A DNA stretch of 53,604 nt. Source: Candidatus Curtissbacteria bacterium (GTDB lineage Bacteria > Patescibacteriota > Microgenomatia > Curtissbacterales > GWA2-41-24). A model generated the notes under the pieces. The model saw nothing but the letters and a program-made list of their open reading frames with translations, searched no databases and was not told the origin of the DNA. Below, in pieces: positions 12,162 to 43,203 of this stretch. The position numbers and the translations under genes were made by a program. Where the stretch lies: assembly GCA_016183325.1 (NCBI GenBank), contig JACPEV010000016.1, forward strand, positions 1 to 53,604, given 5' to 3'. Numbering within the stretch: position 1 is the stretch's first letter; the number at the start of each line of letters is the position of its first letter.

Positions 12162-12206
12162 ACAAAGTGAAGATCATCCTGAGCGGAGTCGAAGGATCTA
12201 TATGAG

Positions 12207-29938: not shown

Positions 29939-30113
29939 CTTTGCGAAGCATACTATGCTGATATATATCAGCCTACGCCTTCGGCGAATCTGATATATCA
30001 GAGGAGCGCCATTCCCGCTTGGCGGGAAGGCGACCTGATAATAATTTCGCGGGAGCGAAAATATATCAGTGAGCTCATGAGCTATAGCGCAATGAGCGAG
30101 GCTGATATATAAT
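29939..30113. repeat. ctgatatat/atatcag palindromic repeat cluster
   Basis: Several ctgatata(ta)tcag units separated by GC hairpins; related copy at 45752-45812. Confidence 0.7.
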
Positions 30114-30121
30114 TGTCGGCA

Positions 30122-30274
30122 ATGATCCTGCCCATTGATGAAGAAGAAATTAAATTAAAAAAACGCAATCGCGCCAGAAAACTTTCCCCCAAAAAACATA
30201 AGATTGTCCATGAATCAGGCAGATCGACTAAAACTTTATGGAAAAAAATTATAGAAGGAGTTATAAAAAAATGA
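30122..30274 (+). CDS. small basic hypothetical protein (50 aa)
   Basis: MILPIDEEEIKLKKRNRARKLSPKK...; ATG lies 8 nt after TATAAT; below the ORF-track cut-off. Confidence 0.5.
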   Translation: MILPIDEEEIKLKKRNRARKLSPKKHKIVHESGRSTKTLWKKIIEGVIKK

Positions 30275-30305
30275 ATCCTGTTAAACTAAGAAATGGAAGA
30301 AGCTA

Positions 30306-33209
30306 ATGCTCGGATTTCTTACAAAATTCCTTGACTCCAACGAGAAGCAAGTTGCCCGACTTGGGCCCCAAGTAGAAGCTGTTAATAACTTAGAGAAGAA
30401 ATTCCAAAAGTTAACCGACGAAAAACTTAAAGCCAAAACTGCCGAATTTAAACTCCGCCAAAAGCGCGGCGAAACTCTCGATGATCTGTTGCCCGAAGCT
30501 TATGCGGCAGTACGTGAAGCTGCCAGGCGCAGCCTGGGCCAAAGACATTTCGATGTCCAAATCTTAGCCGGAATCGTTCTGCACCAAGGTAAAATCGCCG
30601 AGCAAAAGACTGGGGAGGGGAAAACTCTCACCGCCTCACTGGCGCTTTACTTAAACTCCCTTGCTACCCGTGGCGTCCATCTGGCCACCGTCAATGATTA
30701 TCTTGCCCGCATCGGTCTTGGCTGGATGGGCCCTATTTATCAGGCACTTGGAGTCACCGCCGGTTGCATCATCCATGAAAAAGCCTTTCTCTACGATCCA
30801 AAATTTGAAGATAAGCAAGAAACAGATTGGCGTCTGAGACATCTTCGCCCCATAGATAAAAAAGATGCTTACAATGCAGATATCACTTATGGCACCAACA
30901 ACGAATTTGGATTCGATTATCTTCGTGACAATATGGTTTGGAACCTTACTGACATGGCCCAGCGCGGCCATTTCTTTGCCATTGTTGACGAAGCAGATTC
31001 AATCTTAATTGATGAAGCCAGAACCCCGCTAATCATTTCCGCTCCTTCTGCCCAAGCAACCGACAAATATTATCAGTTTGCCAAACTGGTCCAGGAACTT
31101 TCCGGCGATACCGACTATGTCAAAGATGAAAAATTAAAAACCGCCAATTTAACCGAACACGGCATCACCAAGGTCGAAAAACGTCTTGGAGTAGCAAACC
31201 TCTATGAAAAAGATTTTGGTACCATCCACCATATTCAACAGGCCCTTCGTGCAAGAACATTGTTTCAAAAAGATAAAGATTATGTTGTCAAAGAAGGCGA
31301 AATCATAATCGTTGACGAATTTACAGGCAGACTTATGCCCGGCCGCCGCTGGTCAGAGGGCCTCCACCAGGCTATTGAAGCCAAGGAAGGCACAAAAATC
31401 CAGCAGGAATCACAAACCCTGGCAACTATCTCTTTTCAAAATTACTTTAGACTTTACGAAAAACTTAGCGGCATGACCGGAACTGCAGCAACCGAAGCTG
31501 AAGAATTTCATAAAATTTATAAGGTTGAAGTTGTGGTCATTCCGACAAACAAACCCATGATTCGAAAGGATCATTCCGATGTCGTCTACAAAACTTTCAA
31601 GGCAAAATTCACCGCCGTTGCCCACGATGTCATTGAAAGATACGAAAAAGGCCAGCCGGTTCTAATCGGCACAACCTCAATTGAAAAAAACGAATTCCTT
31701 TCGTCTCTTTTGAAAAGGAAAGGAGTCACCCATCAAATCTTAAATGCCAAAAACCACCAAAGAGAAGCCGAAATCATTGCTCAGGCCGGCACCAAAAACT
31801 CAGTCACCTTGGCAACTAATATCGCCGGCAGAGGAGTCGACATTATTTTGGGCGGCACACCTCCGACAGATAAACTCGGTAGACCTCTCATCAAAGGTAA
31901 TGATTATCAAAAATGGCAAAAGGAACACGCAGAAGTTGTCGAACTTGGCGGTCTTCACGTTGTCGGTACAGAAAGACACGAAGCCAGACGAATCGACAAT
32001 CAGCTTCGGGGTCGTTCCGGCCGTCAAGGAGATCCGGGCTCTAGCAAGTTCTATGTTTCACTCGAGGACGATATCATGCGTCTTTTCGGAGGAGAACAAA
32101 TCGCCAGAATTATGACCGCTTTCAAACTTCCCGAAGACACCCCGATCGAACATGGCATGGTTGGAAAAAGCATTGAAAATGCTCAAGTTAAAGTTGAGAC
32201 TCACAACTTTGATATCAGAAAGCACTTGGTCGAATACGACGATGTGGCCAACAAACAGAGAGAAATTATCTACGGAGCGCGCCGCGATATTTTAGAAGCC
32301 GCTCAAGATCCTCAAAAAGCGCAAAAGTTAAAGGAAGATATCACTGCCAAAATTGAAAACGAGATTGAAAACCTTGTTCTGTTAAATTCTCAGGAAGAAA
32401 GTGTTTCAAATCAAGGGCAGATAATTAAAGAGCTGACAACCATAATTCCATTTGACGAAACATCAGCAGGCAAATTGCTTGAGGACGGCCAAAAGATAAC
32501 CGCCTCGCAGAAATTAATTGAATTTCTAAAGGGAGTCGTAAGCCATGTGTACCAGGAAAGAGAAAAATCGCTTGGTGAAACAACCGCCAGAGATATTGAA
32601 AAATTTGTTTCACTTTCTGTTGTCGACACTCTGTGGATCCAGCATCTTGACACACTCGACGACCTTCGCGAAGGCATTGGCCTTCGTGCCGCCGGCCAAC
32701 GCGATCCCTTGGTCGAATATAAACAAGAAGCCTTTAATCTATTTGAAAAATTAATGGCTTCAATTGATTACGAAATTGTTCACCGAATCTTTAAGGTCCA
32801 AGTTCGTCAGCAGCCAACCATAGAACAGGTTGAAGAGCGCGGCGTCGAGGTCCACCCCGAAGCTAAACTTGGGTCACCAGGCGACCAGGCTATCAGGCCA
32901 TCAGGCAATAGTGCTGCTCCAGATAACCTGATAACCCGACAACCCGGTAACCTAGAGAAAGATCCTTCCGAAATGACCGACGCCGAGCTCGACGCCGAAA
33001 TCGCCCGCCTCGAAGCCCTCGAAAGAGGTAATCAGGTAGCCAGGCAATTAGGTAATCAGGTTATAGTTCCAGATAACCTGATAACCCGGCAACCCGGTAA
33101 CCAGCCACTGAAAGTGGCTAAGATCGGCCGCAACGACCCTTGTCCTTGTGGATCAGGATTGAAGTGGAAGAAGTGTGGTTTGATTGGCGCCTCACAACAT
33201 CACGGATGA
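30306..33209 (+). CDS. secA: preprotein translocase ATPase SecA
   Basis: TGEGKT, DEADSILIDEART, QLRGRSGRQGDPG and GRNDPCPCGSG motifs. Confidence 0.98.
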   Translation: MLGFLTKFLDSNEKQVARLGPQVEAVNNLEKKFQKLTDEKLKAKTAEFKLRQKRGETLDDLLPEAYAAVREAARRSLGQRHFDVQILAGIVLHQGKIAEQKTGEGKTLTASLALYLNSLATRGVHLATVNDYLARIGLGWMGPIYQALGVTAGCIIHEKAFLYDPKFEDKQETDWRLRHLRPIDKKDAYNADITYGTNNEFGFDYLRDNMVWNLTDMAQRGHFFAIVDEADSILIDEARTPLIISAPSAQATDKYYQFAKLVQELSGDTDYVKDEKLKTANLTEHGITKVEKRLGVANLYEKDFGTIHHIQQALRARTLFQKDKDYVVKEGEIIIVDEFTGRLMPGRRWSEGLHQAIEAKEGTKIQQESQTLATISFQNYFRLYEKLSGMTGTAATEAEEFHKIYKVEVVVIPTNKPMIRKDHSDVVYKTFKAKFTAVAHDVIERYEKGQPVLIGTTSIEKNEFLSSLLKRKGVTHQILNAKNHQREAEIIAQAGTKNSVTLATNIAGRGVDIILGGTPPTDKLGRPLIKGNDYQKWQKEHAEVVELGGLHVVGTERHEARRIDNQLRGRSGRQGDPGSSKFYVSLEDDIMRLFGGEQIARIMTAFKLPEDTPIEHGMVGKSIENAQVKVETHNFDIRKHLVEYDDVANKQREIIYGARRDILEAAQDPQKAQKLKEDITAKIENEIENLVLLNSQEESVSNQGQIIKELTTIIPFDETSAGKLLEDGQKITASQKLIEFLKGVVSHVYQEREKSLGETTARDIEKFVSLSVVDTLWIQHLDTLDDLREGIGLRAAGQRDPLVEYKQEAFNLFEKLMASIDYEIVHRIFKVQVRQQPTIEQVEERGVEVHPEAKLGSPGDQAIRPSGNSAAPDNLITRQPGNLEKDPSEMTDAELDAEIARLEALERGNQVARQLGNQVIVPDNLITRQPGNQPLKVAKIGRNDPCPCGSGLKWKKCGLIGASQHHG

Positions 33210-33216
33210 ATTTATA

Positions 33217-33335
33217 ATCCACAAGGACCCTGAGCGAAGTCGAAGGGCCCATGCAAAGCGATCAACCCTGATACTGGCAAACCATATAAGTACAAGAAGT
33301 GCGGCATGATCAACGCTCCATATCATAAAGGATAA
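33217..33335 (+). pseudogene. displaced secA 3'-end copy 2
   Basis: Reads IHKDP[20-bp repeat insertion]CKAINPDTGKPYKYKKCGMINAPYHKG*. Confidence 0.8.
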
Positions 33336-33359
33336 TCTTAGTATATAATATTAAAAATT

Positions 33360-34232
33360 ATGGGCGAAGGACAAAGTGACGAAAAGAGAGAAAAGGTTGA
33401 ACTCGATAAATATTCTTCTGAGGAAATTGTTAGATATTTGAGAGATAAATTATCTAAAGATCCAACTCAATTTCCAAACCCAAACGCACTATCGCTTCTT
33501 GATCAAATAATAAATTATCAGGCAAATGAACAAGTAGAAGAAAACTCAGTACAAACAGAGACAGAAGCAAGCGAATGGGCAAATAAAATAAAATATCATT
33601 TTTTACGTGGGAAATTTGGCAATGGATGGCAGACACGAAATGGACCATTACGTTTTGACTACAATACCAGTGATTTTAAATCCACAGAAGTAAAAGGAAG
33701 TTTCACTATCCCATCTGACTGGATAGTAGATAGAAATTATAAAAATATCAAGGCCATGGGGCTTCTTGTAGGTTACTTTTATGAAGTATCCAAGCAAAGA
33801 GATAAGAATTTTTTAATTGTTAGTGCACCATCAGCAGATGTAAACAGAGCAATTGGTCTGAGGGAGGATTATGTTCCACTGCAATATTTAATGTGGTCAC
33901 ATAAAGATGCCACACCTGACGCAAGAGGAAATCATGTTCCATTATCATTCTACTTCTTTCTGCCCGAACAAGAAGCAAAAGCCTTCTTAGAAAAAATAGG
34001 TAAAAACCCCGATTTGATTGAAAATGTATTTCAATTACAACATCCTGGATTGGTCGCACAAGGACAGGTCCAAAGAGTTAGGGTGGACCAGTTATCGAGA
34101 ATTGATGTTGAAACTGCCACAGCAAAGTTCGACCTACTCACAAATCCACCAGGTAATCCTTATGCAATAACTTCAGTAACCCCAAAAGAAACACTCAATT
34201 TCAAAAATCCGGTTGGGGAAATGCCAGGATAA
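33360..34232 (+). CDS. hypothetical protein (cargo between secA tails)
   Basis: 290-aa ORF with no motif recognised; its stop abuts tail copy 3. Confidence 0.75.
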   Translation: MGEGQSDEKREKVELDKYSSEEIVRYLRDKLSKDPTQFPNPNALSLLDQIINYQANEQVEENSVQTETEASEWANKIKYHFLRGKFGNGWQTRNGPLRFDYNTSDFKSTEVKGSFTIPSDWIVDRNYKNIKAMGLLVGYFYEVSKQRDKNFLIVSAPSADVNRAIGLREDYVPLQYLMWSHKDATPDARGNHVPLSFYFFLPEQEAKAFLEKIGKNPDLIENVFQLQHPGLVAQGQVQRVRVDQLSRIDVETATAKFDLLTNPPGNPYAITSVTPKETLNFKNPVGEMPG

Positions 34233-34279
34233 AATGGAAAAAATGCGGCCTTATCAATGCTCAATATCACAAGAGATAG
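34232..34279 (+). pseudogene. displaced secA 3'-end copy 3
   Basis: Reads KWKKCGLINAQYHKR*. Confidence 0.8.
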
Positions 34280-34289
34280 TGAAATCTTC

Positions 34290-34388
34290 AACGGTCTCAA
34301 TCTATCGATTAAGCGATAGATTAATATCATCACACTTTAAGACATGTCAAAAAATGTGATGGTTAAGCTATAGGTTCAACCTTGATTA
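34290..34388 (+). repeat. 99-bp direct repeat, copy 1
   Basis: 98/99 identical to 35581-35679. Confidence 0.9.
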
Positions 34389-34408
34389 CATTACCCTTTG
34401 CGTTACTA

Positions 34409-34456
34409 AAATGGAAAAAATGCGGCCTAATTAATGCCCCTCAACATAAAGGATAA
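34409..34456 (+). pseudogene. displaced secA 3'-end copy 4
   Basis: Reads KWKKCGLINAPQHKG*. Confidence 0.8.
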
Positions 34457-34506
34457 AATCCACCCTTTGACATTTTATAGTTATTTATGTAAACTATTTG
34501 TGTAAT

Positions 34507-34776
34507 ATGATTACACGTCTGAATGTATCAATGCCATCGGAAGTTGTCTCAAAAGTTAAGAAATTTACTTCAAAAAGGGGGGTCAGTCGGTTTTTGACGG
34601 AGGCCGCAAACGAGAAAATTGAAAAACTTGAGCGGGAAAAAGCCCTTGAAGAACTTCTAGCTGCACCTCCCTCATTCAAATTTCTAAAAGGTAAAAACGC
34701 CTCTGCTAGATGGGTGAGAGAATTGAGGCGAACCGATAATAAGAGATTGAAACGAATCTGGGGTAAAAGGGTCTAA
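34507..34776 (+). CDS. ribbon-helix-helix antitoxin (VapB-like)
   Basis: RLNVSMP...SRFL.EA pattern; upstream of the PIN toxin; TTGACA-17-TAAACT promoter. Confidence 0.75.
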   Translation: MITRLNVSMPSEVVSKVKKFTSKRGVSRFLTEAANEKIEKLEREKALEELLAAPPSFKFLKGKNASARWVRELRRTDNKRLKRIWGKRV

Positions 34777-34784
34777 AACCTTCA

Positions 34785-35174
34785 ATGAGAGGTGTATTGG
34801 TTGATACTGATATTTTGGTCGATTTTTTTCATAATCAAGATTATGCAAAAAAGTTAATTGGGCGCTTAGCCGAGGAAGGAAAAATTCACATTTCGATTTT
34901 AACTATTACGGAACTTCGAACAGGATTTACACCAGAACAGGCGGAATTTTTACTCCCAAAATTGTACAAAATGGTAACTATACTTCCCATAACGGTAGAT
35001 CAAGCTGAATTAGCTGGAAAATTTCGATATCAATATAGAATCAAAGGAAAAATCTTATCTACTATAGACACTTTAATTGCAGCTGCAACCCTGTCTAAAA
35101 ATTTACTTTTAATAACTCGCAACAAAAAGGATTTCCCAATGCCAGAAATTAAATTGTATGAATTGCAAAACTAA
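34785..35174 (+). CDS. vapC: PIN-domain toxin (VapC family)
   Basis: LVDTDILVD, EL..G, DTLIAA and TRNKKDF motifs. Confidence 0.9.
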   Translation: MRGVLVDTDILVDFFHNQDYAKKLIGRLAEEGKIHISILTITELRTGFTPEQAEFLLPKLYKMVTILPITVDQAELAGKFRYQYRIKGKILSTIDTLIAAATLSKNLLLITRNKKDFPMPEIKLYELQN

Positions 35175-35203
35175 CATCGCCCTTCGCAGTTCACGTCTCA
35201 ATC

Positions 35204-35247
35204 GGAAAAAATGCGGCTTAATTAATTCGCCGCAGCACAAAGGCTGA
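35204..35247 (+). pseudogene. displaced secA 3'-end copy 5
   Basis: Reads KKCGLINSPQHKG*. Confidence 0.8.
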
Positions 35248-35250
35248 ACC

Positions 35251-35433
35251 ATGAAAACAAATAAAGAAAAGAAGCAAGCAAAAGATAGTCTTTACTTCGA
35301 CGATTGTGCCTTGTGCCAAATGATGGAAGAATCGGAAAAAACAGGTAAGGTATTCACTATTTCCCAGATTAAAAAAGGATTTAAAAATATGAAACTAAAA
35401 GGCGCAATTGTTGGAGAAGATCTTTCAACCTAG
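35251..35433 (+). CDS. small CxxC hypothetical protein
   Basis: YFDDCALCQMM; starts 3 nt after the tail-5 stop. Confidence 0.6.
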   Translation: MKTNKEKKQAKDSLYFDDCALCQMMEESEKTGKVFTISQIKKGFKNMKLKGAIVGEDLST

Positions 35434-35580
35434 CGTTTCTTTGCGGCAAAAAAGAAAAATATTTATACAGCTAAAACCACAGAACAAGCGACGAAGGCTT
35501 TTGAAACATCCCAACCTGTAGTAATTGGCCGATTAGCGCTTAGCCCACAAAGATATTAAATTTAAAATTTAATAATCACT

Positions 35581-35679
35581 AACGGTCTCAATCTATCGAT
35601 TAAGCGATAGATTAATATCATCACACTTTAAGACATGTCAAAAAATGTGATGGTTTAGCTATAGGTTCAACCTTGATTA
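35581..35679 (+). repeat. 99-bp direct repeat, copy 2
   Basis: 98/99 identical to 34290-34388. Confidence 0.9.
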
Positions 35680-35709
35680 TCGATTATACTTATGAGATGC
35701 TAATTTTAG

Positions 35710-36936
35710 ATGGAGCAATCAAATTCTGTAAGAAGTAACCATTCTAGTGAGCAGCCTCAACACATAGACTCTACGTTACCGCAAGGGAAGAGTGTGAATA
35801 ACTCTGGAAGTACAAAAACTCCTTTTTGGAAAAGTGATACATTTTTTGTTATTACGATTTTTCTTTTTGGACCGTTATCATTCCTGTGGGCTCCAAAAGA
35901 AATCTTTGAATCACAAGTAACGATTACAAGACCATCTCCTTTAAAGCTACTTATGGCAGTTTTTCTCTCATTTGTTATCCCAAGCCTATTCACTTATATG
36001 GCTTATTCGAATATAGACATTTGGAAGACGAAACCAGATGTAGCAATACTTTTTATGATATGGATATTTATTTTTCTTGTTGTTAGTTTTATTAGTTGTT
36101 TTACACTATTTCCAGGGCTTGGCAATATTGTGAGAAGAAATAGGATCATTTTTGTAATCTCTTTCGCCATTATCTTGACTATTGTATCAACCTCGTTAGA
36201 TTTTATTGTAGTGATACTTGGAGCGTATGAGGGTGCACTCCCTTCAGTAATCCAAGACAATCTAGCAATCATCGTACTGACAGCAGTATCTATTGGATCC
36301 GCAATAACATATTTCAAAACGCGAAGTCCTATCCATAAAAAGATGGTCGGTACATTGACTGTTATAGTGATAGTGTTAACGATAGCAATTTTGCCTCTAT
36401 TTTTAACATGGGGTTCAGAAATAACAAAAATGTATGGCAATTATCTAAAAAAACAAGGCGATCTTGTTCCCGTGGTAGAGACCCGAATGGGATACACTAT
36501 TAATCTCTACCCAGCGGATGGCTATTGGCAATCACGGGAATTAGGAGAATATTCTCGAGTAACATCTAAAAATGGTTATCAACTTACAATTGAAAAAGCA
36601 CAAACAAATGAAACAACACTGGAAGGATTCGTTGAAGAAAGGATACAACAAATTAAGCAGCGAGCAGAGGAGAGGGCCTTAAAGCAAGGCGTTTCTTGTT
36701 ATCAGCCAGAATTTCAAGAGACTGTTAGTGATGATAACTGGCAAGGAGTACGAGTAACATTATCTGATTGTTTTGATGTAGGGGATATGAAAGTGTATCT
36801 GAAGCATAATAAAAATTTTTATGTAATTTCTCTAAATTATCCTTTGTCATATGCAAACTATGTAAACAAAGATGCGAATCGGCAGAGGGCCTTAAATAAT
36901 TTTAACTTAATGCTTGCTTCTCTTCAATTCCAATAA
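35710..36936 (+). CDS. multi-TM membrane protein with C-terminal soluble domain
   Basis: About six TM segments followed by a PsbP-like tail ending F..ML.SLQF. Confidence 0.7.
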   Translation: MEQSNSVRSNHSSEQPQHIDSTLPQGKSVNNSGSTKTPFWKSDTFFVITIFLFGPLSFLWAPKEIFESQVTITRPSPLKLLMAVFLSFVIPSLFTYMAYSNIDIWKTKPDVAILFMIWIFIFLVVSFISCFTLFPGLGNIVRRNRIIFVISFAIILTIVSTSLDFIVVILGAYEGALPSVIQDNLAIIVLTAVSIGSAITYFKTRSPIHKKMVGTLTVIVIVLTIAILPLFLTWGSEITKMYGNYLKKQGDLVPVVETRMGYTINLYPADGYWQSRELGEYSRVTSKNGYQLTIEKAQTNETTLEGFVEERIQQIKQRAEERALKQGVSCYQPEFQETVSDDNWQGVRVTLSDCFDVGDMKVYLKHNKNFYVISLNYPLSYANYVNKDANRQRALNNFNLMLASLQFQ

Positions 36937-36938
36937 GC

Positions 36939-36997
36939 GTAACAGGTTAGTTCTTCGGAAGTAGTCATTCTGGAAGGAGGCTGAAAGCCGACTGATA
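36939..36997 (+). mobile_element. truncated copy of the MITE-like element
   Basis: Left TIR gtaacaggttagtt plus the first internal palindrome; the rest is absent. Confidence 0.7.
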
Positions 36998-37082
36998 TAG
37001 GAGGGTAAGACGTCCCCTGAGGTCCCCTGAGGGACGGTCCTGAGAAGGATTGTTACAACAGTCCCAAAAACTAGAAAATTAA

Positions 37083-37115
37083 ATCAATCATTCAAAGTAA
37101 ATTGTGCAGTCAAAA
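37083..37115 (+). repeat. 33-bp direct repeat, left of the nitrogen module
   Basis: 32/33 identical to 40986-41018. Confidence 0.85.
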
Positions 37116-37170
37116 CTTCTTTTGCCAAAAAGATATTTTTGCATTATACTTAGGGGCTAAATTTGAGAAT

Positions 37171-37902
37171 ATGGCGACCAAAAAACCCAATGGTTTGACA
37201 GATAACGCTTCGTGGCTACAAGTTATAAACCTGCTTTCGGACCTTGTGGTTTACAACCATTACGATTTCGACGAGTTTTTGAAAAAACTAATAAAAGTTG
37301 TCATTGAAGTAATCCCTACAGACTCTTGCCTGATATATTTCTACGATCAAGATAAATCCGAACTTATCCTGATCGGATCTAAAAAACCGCATAAAGAACA
37401 ACTTGGAAAAATCATTTTGAGAAAAGGCGAAGGGATCACCGGTTGGGTTGCCGAACACAAGCAAACTGTCGCCATTGAAAAAGAAGCGTATAAAGACCCT
37501 AGATTTAAATTCTTTGAAGACCTACCGGAAGACACTTATGAAAGTTTTCTTTCGGTTCCTATTGTCAACCAAGCCGGTGTTGTTGGTGTCGTCAATCTGC
37601 AGAACAGAAAGCCTTACAAATTTTCAAAAATCGAAATTAAAACAATCGAATCTTTAGTCAAACTAATCGCTTCTGCATTTGTCAAAGTAGTTTTAAAAAG
37701 ACAAGTTGACCGACTTGAAAATCAGCTTGAAGAAAGAAAAGTAATTGAAAAAGCCAAAGGACTCTTAATGAAATACAAAAATTTGGATGAAGCGACAACT
37801 TACAAATTTTTAAGGCAAGAGTCGATGAATAGACGAAAATCGATGAAAGAGGTTGCTGAGTCTATATTGTTAGTTTATGAAGCGCTGGGAAAATATCCGT
37901 AA
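37171..37902 (+). CDS. GAF + ANTAR RNA-binding regulator
   Basis: GEGITGWVA...D.RF...SFLSVP (GAF); LEERKVIEKAKGLLM...LR..SM..R.SMKEVA (ANTAR). Confidence 0.92.
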   Translation: MATKKPNGLTDNASWLQVINLLSDLVVYNHYDFDEFLKKLIKVVIEVIPTDSCLIYFYDQDKSELILIGSKKPHKEQLGKIILRKGEGITGWVAEHKQTVAIEKEAYKDPRFKFFEDLPEDTYESFLSVPIVNQAGVVGVVNLQNRKPYKFSKIEIKTIESLVKLIASAFVKVVLKRQVDRLENQLEERKVIEKAKGLLMKYKNLDEATTYKFLRQESMNRRKSMKEVAESILLVYEALGKYP

Positions 37903-38000
37903 TGCGAAGTCTCATTTTTCCAAAAACAACAATTACTAATATACTAGTATATTAGTAGCAAACTGTCATTCAGAGGTTCGGCCAACTGAAGTCCGGCAAC

Positions 38001-38030
38001 TTGACAAAAGTGCTAGCATTCATTTAATCT
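38001..38030 (+). promoter_or_regulatory. glnA promoter
   Basis: TTGACA-18-TAATCT immediately upstream of the ANTAR hairpins. Confidence 0.6.
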
Positions 38031-38041
38031 AAAAGAGAATC

Positions 38042-38079
38042 ATCTTCAAAGTCGAAGATTCTTCAAGACAAAGTAGTCT
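38042..38079 (+). promoter_or_regulatory. ANTAR-target dual-hairpin RNA
   Basis: atcttc-AAAGTC-gaagat and agac-AAAGTA-gtct: two hexaloops with A1/G4, C-G closing pairs and a 6-nt linker; adjacent to the ANTAR gene. Confidence 0.85.
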
Positions 38080-38094
38080 CCAAAGCAGTTTAAA

Positions 38095-38198
38095 TATTCT
38101 TCGAGCGACCCTGAGCGAAGTCGAAGGGGAGTCGAGAAGTTACCTTAAAAATTATTAATATTTTAAGTGGTAAGTTCTCGCTAATCGCTCGAACAATA
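38095..38198. repeat. long palindromic repeat in the glnA leader
   Basis: tattcttcgagcg/cgctcgaacaata and cgagaagttacc/ggtaagttctcg pair; nested ccctgagcgaagtcgaaggg. Confidence 0.8.
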
Positions 38199-38222
38199 AT
38201 TTAATATCAGCAGAATTTTTAC

Positions 38223-39626
38223 ATGATTGATCTTAGAAAAGTTTTAACGCTCACAAGATCCGGCGAAATCGAATTTGTCGATTTACGTTTCGTCGATCTG
38301 CGCGGTGTTTGGCAGCATATGTCAATTCCGGCACATGAACTGAAAGAAAAAAATTTAGAGATGGGTTATGGGTTCGACGGCTCAAGCATCCGCGGTTTTC
38401 AGACAATCTCAGAAAGCGACATGCTTTTGATGCCGGATGTCAAAACTTTTTTTTTCGATCCGTTTTTTGAAAAAACAATAAATGTAATTTGCAATGTTTT
38501 CGATCCTGCAACCGGCAAGAATTACCCAAAAGATCCGCGCTACACTGCCCAAAAAGCCGAAAACTATCTTAAAAAATCGGGCATTGGCGATATTTCTTAT
38601 TGGGGACCGGAAATAGAATACTTCCTGTTCGACAGTCTCGGATACTACGTCTCTCCTTACGAGTCATTTGTCAAAATCGCAAGCTCTGAATTTCCTCCTG
38701 AAGATCCTAACTCTCCAAAAGACGGATATAAAATCCTTCATAAAACCGGCTACTTTCCAGTCCCACCTTTTGATAAGCTTCAAGCTTTTAGATCGGAGTT
38801 TGTTATCTTGCTTGAAAAAAATGGAGTTGAAATCGAAGTCCATCATCACGAAGTTGCCTCCGGCGGTCAGGTTGAAATTGACATGCACTATGACGCACTA
38901 ACTGCCATGGCCGATAAAGTCATGATCTACAAATACTTAGCCAGAAACCTCGCCAAAAAATACCAAATGACTGCTTGCTTTTTGCCAAAGCCGCTTTACG
39001 CTGACAACGGATCTGGTATGCATACACACCAAAGCCTGTTTAAACAGGGCCGAAATCTTTTCTATGACCCAAAGGGATACGCTGAAATGTCCGAAATTGG
39101 TTTTTCTTATCTGGCAGGACTCCTGGTAAATATCAAAACTCTTCTTGCAATTACCAATCCCACAGTCAACTCTTACAGACGACTCGTACCCCACTTCGAG
39201 GCACCGACTTCAATCGCCTTTTCAAAAAGGAACAGGAGTGCCACAGTCAGAATCCCCATGTATTACAAAAAAATTCCCAATGCCAAAAGAATAGAATTCA
39301 GAGTTCCTGATCCAACTTGCAACCCATATTTATCTTTTGCTGCACAATTGGTCTATGGTATTGAGGGCATTAAAAATAAGCTGGATCCCAAAAAACTCGG
39401 TTTTGGCCCGCACGATGAAAATATTTACGAAATGGCAAAGATTGAACAAACCCCAAACAATCTTTTTACCGTTTTGGAAAATCTTAAAAAAGATCAAATA
39501 CTCATAAAAAGCGGCGTCTTTGACGCCCAGCTAGTCAACAGCTATCTGGATGTCAGAACCGAAGACGCCCAGCAAAATCTTCTTTACCCGACACCTGCCG
39601 ATTTCATGTTCTACTCGGACATTTAA
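38223..39626 (+). CDS. glnA: glutamine synthetase type I (beta-like)
   Basis: FDGSSI, HHEVA, KP...DNGSGMHTH, NRSA and RIEFR.PD motifs; GSI-beta insertion; NIYE. Confidence 0.96.
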   Translation: MIDLRKVLTLTRSGEIEFVDLRFVDLRGVWQHMSIPAHELKEKNLEMGYGFDGSSIRGFQTISESDMLLMPDVKTFFFDPFFEKTINVICNVFDPATGKNYPKDPRYTAQKAENYLKKSGIGDISYWGPEIEYFLFDSLGYYVSPYESFVKIASSEFPPEDPNSPKDGYKILHKTGYFPVPPFDKLQAFRSEFVILLEKNGVEIEVHHHEVASGGQVEIDMHYDALTAMADKVMIYKYLARNLAKKYQMTACFLPKPLYADNGSGMHTHQSLFKQGRNLFYDPKGYAEMSEIGFSYLAGLLVNIKTLLAITNPTVNSYRRLVPHFEAPTSIAFSKRNRSATVRIPMYYKKIPNAKRIEFRVPDPTCNPYLSFAAQLVYGIEGIKNKLDPKKLGFGPHDENIYEMAKIEQTPNNLFTVLENLKKDQILIKSGVFDAQLVNSYLDVRTEDAQQNLLYPTPADFMFYSDI

Positions 39627-39634
39627 AAAGATAA

Positions 39635-40966
39635 ATGAATCTGACATTTGCAGTTTTACTGATAATTTTATTAGGAGTTGCAACTACTTTTTTTGCCACA
39701 AACTTTGCCGGAGCATCAGCCGGGGATTTTGATCCGACCACTATTTCAAGCGGCGATACGGCCTGGGTTCTGGCAGCAGCAGCACTGGTTATGATCATGA
39801 CCCCGGCAGTCGGTTTTTTCTATGGCGGCATGGTGCGCGCCAAAAACGTGGTCAGCGTTATCAAGCAATCTTTGGTTATTTTGGCTCTTGTGGGCATTCA
39901 ATGGGTTATTTTGGGTTACAGTCTTGTATTCGGTCGAGACATAAACGGGCTAATTGGAGGTCTTGATTTTTTTGGTCTAAGAAATGTTGGTTTTGCTGCG
40001 AATCCCGATTATGCCGCCACTATCCCTCATTTGGCCTACATGATCTTTCAGGCTATGTTTGCCATAATTACTCCGGCATTAATAATCGGTTCATTTGTTG
40101 AGAGAATCCGCTTCAGAACCCTTGTCCTCTTCATACTTTTATGGGCGACTTTTGTTTATGATCCAATTGCCCATTGGGTCTGGGGAGTCGGCGGATGGCT
40201 AAGAACTTTGGGTGCTTTGGATTTTGCTGGCGGTACAGTTGTTCACATCAGTGCCGGTTTTTCTGCTCTTGCCGCCGCCATTTTAGTTGGTAAAAGAAGC
40301 GATGTTAAAGATCACAAGATCTCAGCCAACAACGTTCCGCTGGTTCTAATTGGCGCTTCACTTTTATGGTTTGGCTGGTTTGGTTTCAATGCAGGCAGCG
40401 CCCTTTCAGCATCACCCCTTGCGGCCAGCGCCTTCGTGGTAACCAATACTGCCGCTGCTGCCGCCGCCTTGGTCTGGATGGTTCTTTCCTGGGCAGAACA
40501 TAAAAAACCAAGCGCACTAGCTACTGCAACCGGTGCGGTCTGCGGCCTTGTCGCAATCACTCCGGCCAGCGGCTTTGTCGGTCCAATTGCATCAATCGCG
40601 ATAGGAATAATTGCAGGAGTGGCGACATATTTGGCCCTACGCTATAGAAGCCTTTATACCAAAATTGATGATACACTCGATGTCTGGGCCGCACACGGTG
40701 TAGGTGGCCTAACAGGAGCGGTTCTTACCGGAGTTTTTGCCGAAAAAGCCATCAACAGCGCTGGCAACAACGGTTTTTTATTTGGCAATCCCGGCCAATT
40801 GCCAATACAGCTGACTGCAGTCGCGGCAACTTCTATTTATGCTTTTATTGCTACCTGGATAATTCTTAAAGTCTTAAGCTTCATAAGTGATCTGCGAGTA
40901 AGTGAAAAAGAAGAAAAACTGGGCCTAGACCAATCTGTCCACGGTGAATCCGGCTACCGCTTTTAA
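39635..40966 (+). CDS. amtB: ammonium transporter
   Basis: DTAWVL, DFAGGTVVH, WFGWFGFNAGS and DDTLDV..HG motifs. Confidence 0.96.
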   Translation: MNLTFAVLLIILLGVATTFFATNFAGASAGDFDPTTISSGDTAWVLAAAALVMIMTPAVGFFYGGMVRAKNVVSVIKQSLVILALVGIQWVILGYSLVFGRDINGLIGGLDFFGLRNVGFAANPDYAATIPHLAYMIFQAMFAIITPALIIGSFVERIRFRTLVLFILLWATFVYDPIAHWVWGVGGWLRTLGALDFAGGTVVHISAGFSALAAAILVGKRSDVKDHKISANNVPLVLIGASLLWFGWFGFNAGSALSASPLAASAFVVTNTAAAAAALVWMVLSWAEHKKPSALATATGAVCGLVAITPASGFVGPIASIAIGIIAGVATYLALRYRSLYTKIDDTLDVWAAHGVGGLTGAVLTGVFAEKAINSAGNNGFLFGNPGQLPIQLTAVAATSIYAFIATWIILKVLSFISDLRVSEKEEKLGLDQSVHGESGYRF

Positions 40967-40985
40967 ACCCCAATACCAGAATTAG

Positions 40986-41018
40986 ATCAATCATTCAAAG
41001 TAAATTGTGCAATCAAAA
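40986..41018 (+). repeat. 33-bp direct repeat, right of the nitrogen module
   Basis: 32/33 identical to 37083-37115. Confidence 0.85.
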
Positions 41019-41108
41019 TATATCACAGTTTTAGACTATTAAGGCAAGACATTTCAGGACCGTCCCTATTCCGGTTATCAACCATAGCAAAGTGTTAAAC
41101 TGAAGATA

Positions 41109-41645
41109 ATGGAGAGAAGAAATCTAGTCTTGCTCCTTGCAGGAATAATCCTATTGGGCATCATTATGGCAACCAATGCCAACTACAGCATAATAGTTTT
41201 TCCGCTGTTTTTGATATTTCTAACTGTTAAAGATCGCGTTGTTCCTCTTTTTAAAAATCTTCCTTTTCCCACATTCTTACTTTTTCTTCTAATAGGTTTA
41301 ATTGTAAGCTTTATTCTAGAATGGGGTGTTGGGGTGGATGAATTAAAGAAAAATCCTTCACATAGTTGGCTTAACAATTGGCTTAGCCTTTCAATCTTTT
41401 ATCTTCTATGGCTCGCTGGATCATATTGGATTATAAAGCGCTTCAAATTAACACCAAAGGGAGTTTTTATTGTAACTTCTCTCTTTGGTATTCTTATTGA
41501 ACAACAATTTCAGTTTTTTCAGATTCTATCTTCGTTTAATCCGGCAATCATAATTTTCTGGGTCTTATATGTTCCTCTTGCTTACACCCCAGTAATTTTA
41601 ATCCCGTATCTAATTTTGAAAAATAAGACTCTAAACAATGGATAA
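41109..41645 (+). CDS. hypothetical multi-TM membrane protein
   Basis: 178 aa, five to six TM segments. Confidence 0.7.
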   Translation: MERRNLVLLLAGIILLGIIMATNANYSIIVFPLFLIFLTVKDRVVPLFKNLPFPTFLLFLLIGLIVSFILEWGVGVDELKKNPSHSWLNNWLSLSIFYLLWLAGSYWIIKRFKLTPKGVFIVTSLFGILIEQQFQFFQILSSFNPAIIIFWVLYVPLAYTPVILIPYLILKNKTLNNG

Positions 41646-41810
41646 AAAGATTATAAAGAATTTTTAAAGTCTATTGAAAAAAACACTCAACATTAACTAC
41701 GGAAGCTGTAGGAGGCGTTAAGGACGTATTCGTGATGAGGGAATTAAAGAAAGTAATTTTAGAAATTGCCCTCCATGATCCTAAATTATTGCAGTGAAAA
41801 ATTGTACGAT

Positions 41811-41958
41811 TATATATCACAAGTTTCGCAGTTGTCATTCTGGTAAGTCGAGTCTGACTCGACGCATCCAGAATCCTCACTTTTTGTAGATTCTGGGCAA
41901 GTCCTAGACCCGGACCTTAGGGCCAGAATGACAAAAAGTGCGAAATTCGTGTATATAT
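41811..41958. repeat. TGTCAT doublet inside imperfect outer inverted repeats (MITE-like)
   Basis: tatatcacaagtttcgca ... tgcgaaattcgtgtatata enclose 41833-41933. Confidence 0.6.
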
Positions 41959-41971
41959 TCACAAAAGAGAT

Positions 41972-42283
41972 CTATGATTTTTTTAACAATTTTGCTCTGT
42001 GCGTTAAAATATTACCCCAAGTCATCATCTTCTCAGCCCACAAAAGTTCATTTTGAATTTTTTCCATTCTTTTTAGCTTTCCCCAATTCTTCAAAAATGT
42101 CAGGAATGTTTTTTTAAAAGAATTTTTGAGTTTCGACTTATCAACCTCTTTGACATAGTCGGATGTTTGATCAACAAATGTTTCGATCCTTTTCTTTCTG
42201 TTGTCAAATCCATCCGCCGCCCAATTACCAATCCGATTCAAGTTAACTGCAATATTTAGTATTTGTGTCTTTTGATCAATCAT
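41972..42283 (-). CDS. small helical hypothetical protein
   Basis: 103 aa, ILNIAVNLNRI; overlaps the DUF5674 stop. Confidence 0.7.
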   Translation of the reverse strand: MIDQKTQILNIAVNLNRIGNWAADGFDNRKKRIETFVDQTSDYVKEVDKSKLKNSFKKTFLTFLKNWGKLKRMEKIQNELLWAEKMMTWGNILTHRAKLLKKS

Positions 42284-42611
42284 TTATCAACAATCTTTTG
42301 ACAACCTCATCAAATTTTTTCCGGATTCCGGCGTCTAAAATCTCCCGGCTAGGATTATTCTGAGTTGGCCTCAAATTGATCATCGAATTGTAATCAATCT
42401 GACCGCTTTCAATATCCAAACCACCACCCCAAAGATTCTCCTGCGCTGATCCATCAGCTATCAGCATTTTCTCGGCGTCCGCATGAAATTCTCCTCCGCC
42501 TGCCAAGATTTTTTTCTCCAAATCAACGACCACTTTAATATAACCCTCATAATCCTCAGCCATTTGTTTAGTTTCTTCTTGATTTGCCTTTTTGCGAATT
42601 ATTAAAATCAT
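42276..42611 (-). CDS. DUF5674 family protein
   Basis: IKVVVD....AGGGE.HAD.E..L...GS.QENLWG...YNSMINLRP.Q.N pattern. Confidence 0.85.
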   Translation of the reverse strand: MILIIRKKANQEETKQMAEDYEGYIKVVVDLEKKILAGGGEFHADAEKMLIADGSAQENLWGGGLDIESGQIDYNSMINLRPTQNNPSREILDAGIRKKFDEVVKRLLIND

Positions 42612-42634
42612 TAATGATATTATATGTTATCGAA

Positions 42635-43192
42635 ATGATAGGCAAAAAAGAACTCCTTGAAAAAGAAGTAAGGAAAATTAAAAATTGTAAAGCGTGTAGA
42701 GTTGGCAAAATTGGCAAAGCGGTTCCAGGGGAGGGGAATCCAAATGCCAAAATTGTTTTCGTTGGTGAAGCTCCCGGCAAAACCGAATCACAAACGGGTC
42801 GTCCATTTGTCGGTAGATCAGGGAAATTTCTACGTCAGTTGATAACTCAAATCGGCCTCAAAGAAAAAGATGTCTATATCACAAGTCCCGTAAAGTATTT
42901 GCCAAAGCGGGGTACGCCATCAAGATCAGACATTAATCACGGATTAACCCACCTTGCTAAACAGCTTGAAATTATCAAGCCAGAACTAATTGTACTTTTA
43001 GGTAATATTGCATATAAAGCTCTGATCGATAAATCGGCCTCAATCAATAAATATCACGGCAAAATTATCCAAAAAGACAAACAAAAATATTTCCCCACTT
43101 TTCATCCCGCCGCAGGCATTAGATTTCAAAAAATCAAGAAATTAATCTTGCAAGATTTCCCAAAGCTCAAATTCATAATTCATAATTCATAA
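42635..43192 (+). CDS. uracil-DNA glycosylase, family 4-like
   Basis: VPGEG, VGEAPG, GRPFVGRSG and FHPAA motifs. Confidence 0.9.
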   Translation: MIGKKELLEKEVRKIKNCKACRVGKIGKAVPGEGNPNAKIVFVGEAPGKTESQTGRPFVGRSGKFLRQLITQIGLKEKDVYITSPVKYLPKRGTPSRSDINHGLTHLAKQLEIIKPELIVLLGNIAYKALIDKSASINKYHGKIIQKDKQKYFPTFHPAAGIRFQKIKKLILQDFPKLKFIIHNS

Positions 43193-43203
43193 TTCATAAT
43201 TCT
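43170..43203. repeat. heptamer tandem array over the UDG stop
   Basis: (attcata) x4; encodes the terminal FIIHNS*. Confidence 0.8.

Follow-up and report, generated by a model that had tools for sequence, protein, structure and literature searches.

The window analysed here is a 53,604-nucleotide (nt) stretch of a Candidatus Curtissbacteria genome (contig JACPEV010000016.1 of assembly GCA_016183325.1, positions 1 to 53,604), in which an intact secA gene is followed by an array of four further copies of its own 3′ end, with small accessory genes, the cargo, lying among them (Table 1). Genomes are numbered with G and loci with L; the genome of the window is G000 (1.21 Mb in 30 contigs), and the window contig is its contig C25. 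Copies of the gene end are numbered outward from secA, tail 1 being the functional tail and relics 2 to 5 (tails 2 to 5 when all five are compared) the displaced ones, while S and L on their own denote the short and long tail types. Each junction has the same order, namely a new tail, its stop codon, cargo, and then the old tail from about the codons of the Cys-Pro-Cys (CPC) motif onward, and the array makes up the first 2.2 kb of a variable island.

The original prediction, made from the letters of the DNA, placed five copies of the tail here in one orientation, and all five were recovered, on the plus strand and in frame to stop codons at the same relative place (33209, 33335, 34279, 34456 and 35247). 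A 20-nt degenerate pattern for KKCG(L/M)I, AARAARTGYGGNNTNATHRR, matches five times in the window, on a single strand, whereas 100 shuffled versions gave 0.14 matches on average and never more than one; across the whole of G000 it finds just the five array copies. The left ends required revision: the copies lie where they had been located, but profile searches with nhmmer put the relic starts further upstream (33247, 34226, 34406 and 35181), and copies 3 to 5, said to begin at almost one codon, start at different S-profile positions (34, 37 and 22). Relic 2 begins at the first Cys codon of CPC and relic 5 at the Pro codon ahead of the second Cys; by eye, relics 3 and 4 could extend to the Cys codon with small deletions, an extension that is statistically unsupported. 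Relic 2 is an L tail lying behind a functional S tail, and its CPCKAINP variant also occurs in the native L tails of two other loci (L093 and L094). Pairwise identity among the five tails is 62–79% over 40–60 nt.

Table 1. Features of the secA locus in window positions, followed by related sites in other loci (locus:positions, minus strand where marked). ORF, open reading frame; aa, amino acids; REP, repetitive extragenic palindromic.
Feature	Position	Strand	Evidence
secA, 967 aa, intact, S-type SEC-C tail ending in ...NDPCPCGSGLKWKKCGLIGASQHHG, then stop	30306..33209	+	ORF; Pfam SEC-C PF02810 E 5.6e-8, SecA_SW
Tail 1, functional tail	33162..33209	+	Pattern, alignment, frame
REP-like motif CCTGAGCGAAGTCGAAGGG, in spacer between tail 1 and relic 2	33229..33247	+	Pattern count
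Relic 2, L-type tail from first Cys codon, (C)PCKAINPDTGKPYKYKKCGMINAPYHKG, then stop	33247..33335	+	nhmmer L profile positions 20-107, E 5.5e-23
Cargo ORF, 290 aa, function unassigned, stop codon inside relic 3	33360..34232	+	ORF
Relic 3, S-type, ...(G)IKWKKCGLINAQYHKR, then stop	34226..34279	+	nhmmer S profile positions 34-85, E 6.5e-10
Direct repeat copy A, 99-106 nt	34283..34388	+	Alignment
Relic 4, S-type, LKWKKCGLINAPQHKG, then stop	34406..34456	+	nhmmer S profile positions 37-86, E 8.5e-13
Promoter-like TTGACA-17-TAAACT ahead of vapB-like gene	34467-34495		Sequence pattern
Cargo vapB-like gene	34507-34776	+	L140 homologue
Cargo PIN/VapC gene	34785-35174	+	Pfam PIN E 3.1e-15
Relic 5, S-type, decayed upstream part (P-C-G-S-G-L-K-W with 1-nt insertion), then KKCGLINSPQHKG and stop	35181..35247	+	nhmmer S profile positions 22-86, E 4.3e-12
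Cargo ORF, 60 aa, with CxxC motif	35251..35433	+	ORF
Direct repeat copy B	35574..35679	+	Alignment
Rest of variable island (408-aa membrane ORF, GAF-ANTAR gene, glnA-like ORF, ammonium transporter, DUF5674, UDG)	35710..43200	.	ORFs, Pfam
78-nt hairpin sites	L051:1543-1640; L057:12020-12120 (-); L118:10688-10790; L038:400-500 (-)		
Arm-type loci	L039, L081, L162, L167, L169, L173, L174, L175, L176, L182		
Arm sites	L175:5860-5895; L173:4355-4390; 14 more		

The five tails differ from one another mainly at third codon positions. Variable columns at codon positions 1, 2 and 3 number 7, 2 and 13 of 13, and over the 10 tail pairs 56 codon differences are synonymous only and 33 change the amino acid, confirming the expected synonymous bias. 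As this bias has been kept, the tails must have diverged while coding, since non-coding drift in place would not keep it. Together with the two tail alleles of the family described below, it supports the earlier proposal that these are formerly functional tails of different secA alleles, and the sequences show the relics to be such former coding tails. It is also highly improbable that the copies arose on the spot, by slippage or unequal crossing-over that duplicated the secA end in tandem and was followed by divergence: the variable columns are concentrated at third positions (13/13 vs 2/13 at second positions), relic 2 belongs to the opposite allele type and has an 8-codon insert, the cargo differs between copies, and tail 4 with vapBC has a native counterpart elsewhere (L140). 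Duplication does draw some support from L124 and L111, where a relic lies only ~20 nt past the stop codon, and from the two 62-nt units of L124, which include a short flank past the stop and, at an identity estimated by eye as ~85%, resemble the product of a tandem duplication.

Native tails were surveyed in the 26 family genomes whose secA end could be recognised and in 80 metagenome loci. The distinct tails comprised 42 of S type (CPCG-SGL-K(W/Y)KKCGL...), 22 of L type (CPCG-AINPxTGKPY-KYKKCGM...), which differs from S by the 8-codon insert also seen in relic 2, and four odd ones. On a tree of the SecA core with 57 rows, from which the tail and ~80 upstream codons were omitted, tail type switches 12 times or more, and well-supported branches force at least six of these switches. 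Shuffled labels gave a mean of 16.3 changes, with 9/500 (S label) and 5/500 (L label) shuffles as low as the observed tree. Close sisters of differing type include L089/G026, G027/G017, G028/G018, L097/L118, and G031 against G029 and L084; tail ends are thus decoupled from the SecA core in evolution. Third positions of 64 native tails carry a mean of 0.54 bits of information and are therefore free, which leaves no room for a hidden DNA site within the tail. The SecA linker ahead of the zinc-binding tail is unalignable even among sister genomes, and in the window it contains an internal duplication (32918-33110), with (P)DNLITRQPGN encoded twice ~150 nt apart and an 8-nt sub-periodicity.

The frequent switches between S and L could also suggest that the relics are silent cassettes for programmed switching of the SecA tail by recombination. 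In several relics the reading frame remains open and the stop has stayed in place, and G017 and G027 share a spacer and relic yet have different functional tails. However, direct repeats can only delete and would not allow switching back, and relics carry damage, including a 1-nt frameshift in G017, changes at conserved residues in its G027 counterpart and truncation of the third relic of G004. Adenine mutagenesis by a diversity-generating retroelement, in which the repeats would differ at template adenines alone, was considered and rejected, as only 6–8 of 13–21 differences fall on relic adenines; with no reverse transcriptase evident either (no search was aimed at one), the variation does not appear to be retroelement-driven. 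No variant junctions were present in contigs among the joints listed, and overall we consider programmed switching improbable.

Displaced tails are not confined to G000. Relatives do not all have a single tail: displaced tails occur in eight of the 26 family genomes (G000, G004, G011, G013, G017, G022, G027 and G031), a lower bound because several contigs end 0.4–1.5 kb from secA. Ten of the 80 metagenome loci have a displaced tail, six repeating family genomes and four representing new lineages (L081, L111, L118 and L124). A scan of 401 genomes of the class added further multi-tail genomes in another family (G112, G248 and G317), and a pattern scan of a species-level genome collection gave 17 loci, of which four are arrays already counted under G handles. 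Among the other 13, relics are present in L169, L174, L175, L176 and L182, L166 is a pattern match only, and no tail relic was found in L170, L171, L172, L177, L179, L180 or L181. G000 has the most relics (four), followed by L173 and L175 with three each. Cargo in the other arrays examined again consists of accessory genes, including toxin-antitoxin pairs (L173, L175), arsenic-type genes in L175, recognised by the look of the first ORF residues rather than by family search, and a 10-kb haem-synthesis block between the functional tail and an arm-type relic (defined below) in L162 (G112:C1:393500-408500). Genes of this block encode ferrochelatase, ALAD, porphobilinogen deaminase, HemD, a chlorite-dismutase-like protein, URO-D and TelA. 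The records of L175 and L176 are labelled Woykebacteria; that of L169 is labelled Nanoarchaeia archaeon, yet it has a bacterial-type secA, tail and arm-type relic, and the contig may be misbinned.

Several comparisons indicate that a tail moves together with the DNA downstream of it. In L140 a native secA tail is followed by vapBC without any relic, matching tail 4, the promoter-like site and vapBC of G000 (69% over 252 nt; VapB and VapC 62% and 56% identical at the amino-acid level). No native tail-and-cargo counterpart was found for tails 2, 3 and 5 in the relatives' loci. A block of S tail, REP element and L relic is common to G000 and G004 (84% over 129 nt). Between the most distal relic of G004 and the functional tail of the congener G024, 6/42 nt differ (manual count), a resemblance that would fit the oldest tail lying furthest out.

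The clearest single event is seen in G031, an L-type genome with an S relic that is nested in an S-type clade. A single 159-nt insertion separates it from G029 and L084. The inserted DNA, which completes an L tail with its stop codon and then adds a 78-nt hairpin, sits at CCGT|GYGG in the second Cys codon of CPC and has GCGG at both edges. Behind the insertion the old S tail and downstream flank are unchanged, the 32 nt past the relic stop being identical to G029 (alignment by eye). The first two 60-column windows after the insertion show 8/60 and 7/60 differences between G029 and G031, and 60-nt windows flanking it are no more diverged than in a control pair. As flank divergence is at background, this test for imported flanks does not separate homologous import from precise insertion. 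The same module occupies this site in four lineages (G031, G022, L118 and G004), where relic starts fall at S-profile positions 26–27 (for G004 this applies to the third relic). It is single-copy and confined to secA in G004, G022 and G031, lies next to secA only in L118 (at locus level), and is absent from G029 and G000. In four sequences 11 of the 23 hairpin pairs show compensatory changes. The hairpin is always 3′ of the L tail when an S relic lies behind, and a scan confined to the window assigned it to no Rfam family.

Insertions of this kind therefore happen at this exact site in relatives of the window genome. All four G000 relics start at or shortly after the CPC codons, which correspond to the G031 insertion site; three of them start 1–11 nt past the G031 junction, and relic 2 starts 6 nt before it. 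Taken together, L140, the G029/G031 pair and the four-lineage module support the predicted unit of tail plus downstream gene entering the SEC-C coding region, and the sequence comparisons show that tail and downstream DNA travel as one.

Alternatively, the assembly might have merged several strains whose secA ends differ, yielding a chimeric array. Public contigs from three sequencing runs (X1 to X3) span 30000-34319, which covers secA, tail 1, relic 2, the 290-aa ORF and relic 3, in one contig with no mismatches. Contigs break only at the copies of the 99-nt repeat (34319/34335 and 35610/35626), where the placement of the 1276-bp piece between is unbridged, and the three pieces have near-equal depth in each run (X1 62.2/63.9/70.3; X2 14.6/14.5/15.5; X3 30.1/36.2/33.0). 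The runs may be the source samples of the assembly, hence their agreement amounts to consistency rather than independent proof. Fragments of vapC and of the island also turn up, at low depth, in a fourth run that belongs to a different study, and similar arrays are found in many other assemblies. In run X3 a contig at a depth of 3.15 passes from secA (at 33151) across 19 other letters into relic 2 (at 33276) and reads as an intact L tail. This contig could be taken as a sign of mixed strains; it probably derives from a co-occurring relative with the L allele and is possibly the form that preceded displacement. A chimera is unlikely, and in view of the even depth and zero mismatches we give it next to no weight.

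Relics in sister lineages can take a different form. Sixteen relics in 10 loci start exactly at the first Lys codon of KKCG, each after a conserved left arm of 30–35 nt that is not SecA sequence (consensus TTAAACCTATATGTGTACCATTAAACTAGCACTTC), with 15 of the last 18 positions conserved in at least 12 of the 16 sites. The window's own family contributes two of these arm-type relics, found in G004 and L081. The arm end and the first tail codons form an inverted repeat around AA, complementarity reaching 47% at spacer 2 vs 21–42% at other offsets, although this dyad symmetry is modest and limited to the inner 7 positions. Judged by its sequence, the arm looks like the element-side half of an attachment site (attR-like). 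Scans for tRNA in L173, L175, L176 and L182, for Rfam families in L175 (3900-8000), and for Rfam families and tRNA or tmRNA in the window (32500-38500) and L175 gave no RNA family or fragment as the repeated unit. A search for a phage or plasmid attP site, one viral-contig scan with the arm-plus-tail pattern, gave a single match without tail, which was taken as chance.

Such relics raise the possibility that the tails are attachment sites of a trans-acting site-specific recombinase, supplied by an absent or unlinked element or by a host XerC/XerD-like pair, through which small circular cassettes, each bearing a tail copy of its own, would integrate into the SEC-C region. The exact start at KKCG behind the arm, its inverted repeat, the three-relic arrays with toxin-antitoxin cassettes in L173 and L175, and the 159-nt module at an identical site in four lineages are all in its favour, as are two conserved tyrosine recombinases found in nearly all family genomes (a match in 31/32). 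The window genome itself, however, has no copy of the arm, whether at up to 7 substitutions across the genome or at up to 9 within the window; its relics retain SecA codons on the upstream side of KKCG and have no left motif in common, and its tails have no identical core. Native tails show no DNA conservation beyond coding, and folded as single-stranded DNA the five tails are not attC-like hairpins (z 0.66 to -0.88).

No recombinase gene is present in cis. As the original prediction had noted, the window lacks an integrase: the two tyrosine recombinases, two large serine recombinases and six Y1 transposase genes of G000 are all off the window contig, with PF00589 matches on contigs C26 and C22. 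In none of the 32 family genomes does the secA contig have a PF00589 match closer than 10 kb to the gene, although short contigs could hide one, and the nearest matches are >160 kb away (G001, G009 and G025). Within the arrays of sister lineages none was recognised in the cargo of L162 (by Pfam), in the ORFs of L163 (G317, by eye) or in those of L175, L176, L182, L169 and L167 (by their first 60 residues). Serine recombinases are present in two of five genomes and none was found in G317 and G248, which have arm-type relics; these assemblies are 77–100% complete, and the result neither supports nor excludes such an enzyme. On balance we regard a recombinase acting in trans as a possible but doubtful driver of the G000 array.

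Serial C-terminal displacement, the process described for rhs genes, is well supported as the origin of the array, a stack of dead SecA tails. On this reading a DNA segment would have entered the resident secA four times, at or beside the CPC codons. Each segment would begin inside the SEC-C coding region and bring a full replacement tail, a stop codon and the donor's downstream DNA, which here would be a REP hairpin, the 290-aa ORF, the 99-nt repeat element or vapBC. SecA would stay intact since the incoming tail takes over, while the old tail is displaced downstream and decays. The segments may have arrived by horizontal transfer, most simply natural transformation, and been fixed by host recombination; ComEC and DprA are present in G000. 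Homologous pairing in conserved secA coding sequence would set the left junction. The right junction could arise in one of three ways, through pairing of a donor relic with the resident tail, through excision of a small circle between two tails and its integration by a single crossover (as in the model for rhs tips), or through a microhomology join. Once a tail-cargo-tail structure exists, its tails could act as portable homology, allowing arrays to spread and grow without a dedicated enzyme. The 99%-identical repeats around a 1291-bp unit of the array are as a recent single-crossover insertion would leave them and fit the small-circle route. We think it somewhat probable that the driver is host recombination using the tails as portable homology, with import by transformation and some units moving via small circles.

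Several observations weigh against displacement driven by host recombination. Tails sharing 40–60 nt at 62–79% identity are a poor substrate for RecA-type recombination, and the origin of the first tail-cargo-tail structure is unexplained. No imported flank is visible in G031, and recurrence of one module at one nucleotide-level site in four lineages fits a site-specific process, while the arm-type relics point to a dedicated att-like site, at least in the loci that carry them. Among the joints listed, which come from contigs only, there is no excised circle or empty-site variant of the G000 array, and neither 34319/35626 nor 35610/34335 is represented. No close donor was found for any G000 tail; the best native match, at 38/42 nt, is of a length and a frequency that do not allow a donor to be identified.

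The cargo listed in the original prediction (the 290-aa ORF, a 99-bp repeat, a vapBC-like pair and the CxxC ORF) is all present, the repeat being refined to 99 nt at 99% identity, or 106 nt at 96%, with a second copy (B) beyond the CxxC ORF. The two copies flank the 1291-bp unit of relic 4, vapBC, relic 5 and the CxxC ORF. The palindromic core of the repeat recurs at 81–92% identity on six other contigs and at 1381-1433 in the window, and the repeat carries a minus-strand promoter-like site, TTGACA-16-GATATT. The 290-aa ORF has no Pfam or NCBIfam family and a single homologue, at 67% identity, in a large protein collection, an atlas search giving only low scores. The 60-aa CxxC ORF likewise has no Pfam or NCBIfam family and no homologue by tblastn among the relatives' loci, where vapB and vapC are the only cargo genes with homologues. 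Although the PIN domain of the latter exceeds its Pfam cut-off, NCBIfam VapC models fall below theirs; its upstream partner (89–92 aa) has no family match, and its homologue in L140 is 62% identical, the pair being conserved there. No nuclease was recognised in the cargo with family libraries and the atlas search.

The REP-like motif has 57 copies in G000 at up to 3 mismatches, against none for a reversed-pattern control, and the spacer holding it is also present in G004. Its copies include 33229-33247, 38110-38128 and 12178-12196, with variable inverted flanks that resemble stems. From their sequences the dispersed motif and the six Y1-transposase genes (~225 aa, elsewhere in G000) look like a system of the REP/RAYT type (REP-associated tyrosine transposase).

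The variable region does not end at 35433 but runs on to 43200, giving an island of ~10 kb (33210-43200) between secA and a conserved YkuD gene (43225). The genes of the island are unique to G000 among the relatives sampled; its glnA-like ORF is so named from a reading of the sequence rather than from a family library. Gene order in the family is secA, sometimes two glycosyltransferase-type genes, YkuD transpeptidases, prfB, ftsE and ftsX. In L080, whose SecA core identity to G000 (78.3%) is among the nearest, with G012 and G025 slightly higher, YkuD follows ~50 nt after secA and the island segment is absent.

These bacteria have tiny genomes with few recognisable mobile elements, and their gene gain is poorly understood. 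The last codons of an essential gene would here be one fixed place at which foreign DNA is taken in time after time, every event leaving a trace that can still be read, such that a stack of relics amounts to an ordered acquisition history, which is rare among bacterial islands. Arm-type relics offer a concrete short DNA site that could be used to find cassettes in metagenomes, and the presence of two exchangeable tail forms in one family bears on the role of the tail in organisms that perhaps lack its usual partners. Annotation would otherwise miss or misread such tail fragments. More tentatively, the coding sequence of the SecA zinc-binding tail might be the attachment site of a lineage-wide cassette platform, in which small circles with their own tail, and often an arm, are inserted by a recombinase in trans. 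Were this so, toxin-antitoxin pairs would be picked up along with entire metabolic islands, such as the one for haem synthesis in one genome and possibly the nitrogen-assimilation genes of the window; the metal-binding end of an essential protein would be exchanged as a side effect, and the G000 array would be an old, arm-less or differently targeted version. Loci that would bear the platform are labelled Woykebacteria, Daviesbacteria, Curtissbacteria and Patescibacteria.

We found no paper that names secA as a site of integration or displacement, or that treats the SecA tail in these lineages, in a literature search that lay outside subscription journals and supplements. The array can nevertheless be set beside several known systems. 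Genomic islands, integrative and conjugative elements and prophages integrate site-specifically at the 3′ ends of genes, and their integrase-less remnants accrete in tandem, for example the cis-mobilisable elements at fda in Streptococcus thermophilus. As in these, a replacement 3′ end is carried in, the old end is left as a partial direct repeat and successive integrations build arrays, and the arm-type relics of sister lineages resemble attR sites. However, no integrase is in or near any secA array examined, the units in the window are 0.13–1.3 kb, and the G000 repeats are diverged alleles; an identical core and conserved arm are both absent from G000, the conserved arm being a feature of the 10 sister-lineage loci.

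Integron arrays and the pdif modules of Acinetobacter plasmids consist of tiny promoter-poor or single-operon units, often toxin-antitoxin pairs, that are bounded by sites and mobilised in trans. The secA array shares with them its very small units between copies of a repeated site, often with toxin-antitoxin pairs, but it has no intI beside it, its repeated site is host coding sequence without an attC-like hairpin, and no Xer-type 11-6-11 site has been shown at the tails. In the minimal mobile elements of Neisseria, cassettes swap between conserved flanks through transformation and homologous recombination, without mobility genes of their own. Different gene cassettes likewise occupy one site between conserved flanks here, but the secA flank is duplicated at each event and old ends accumulate rather than being replaced. 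Mobile ORFs of fungal mitochondria (in atp6, cox and other genes) encode homing endonucleases, supply a new in-frame C-terminus and leave the old 3′ end downstream; at secA the inserted element similarly gives a new C-terminus and the original 3′ end becomes a downstream relic, the difference being that no nuclease was recognised in its cargo. Work by Poole et al. (2011) is said to belong beside rhs displacement and the orphan CdiA-CT/immunity modules.

The closest likeness is with rhs genes. According to Jackson et al. (2009, PMC2935791), the conserved part of an rhs gene is kept while incoming 3′ ends take over, and old ends accumulate downstream as dissociated tips that retain a piece of conserved sequence. 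The tips are decoupled from the core in evolution, each with its own downstream gene, and the mechanism proposed there is homologous recombination with small circular intermediates and no dedicated recombinase (PMC2935791). In the window, secA is intact and the four relics reach into the CPC...KKCG coding blocks; the tails are decoupled from the core, and tail 4 has its own downstream genes. There are also clear differences, as secA encodes an essential housekeeping ATPase and not a polymorphic toxin, a zinc-binding tail of 15–30 codons is swapped in place of a toxin domain, and the shared homology is tens of nt long instead of hundreds. The secA cargo is moreover unrelated to the function of the tail, being a toxin-antitoxin pair and unassigned ORFs in the window, and haem- or arsenic-type genes in relatives. 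C-terminal displacement as a process is already known from rhs and, by this analogy, would here be acting on an essential gene and a very short tail.

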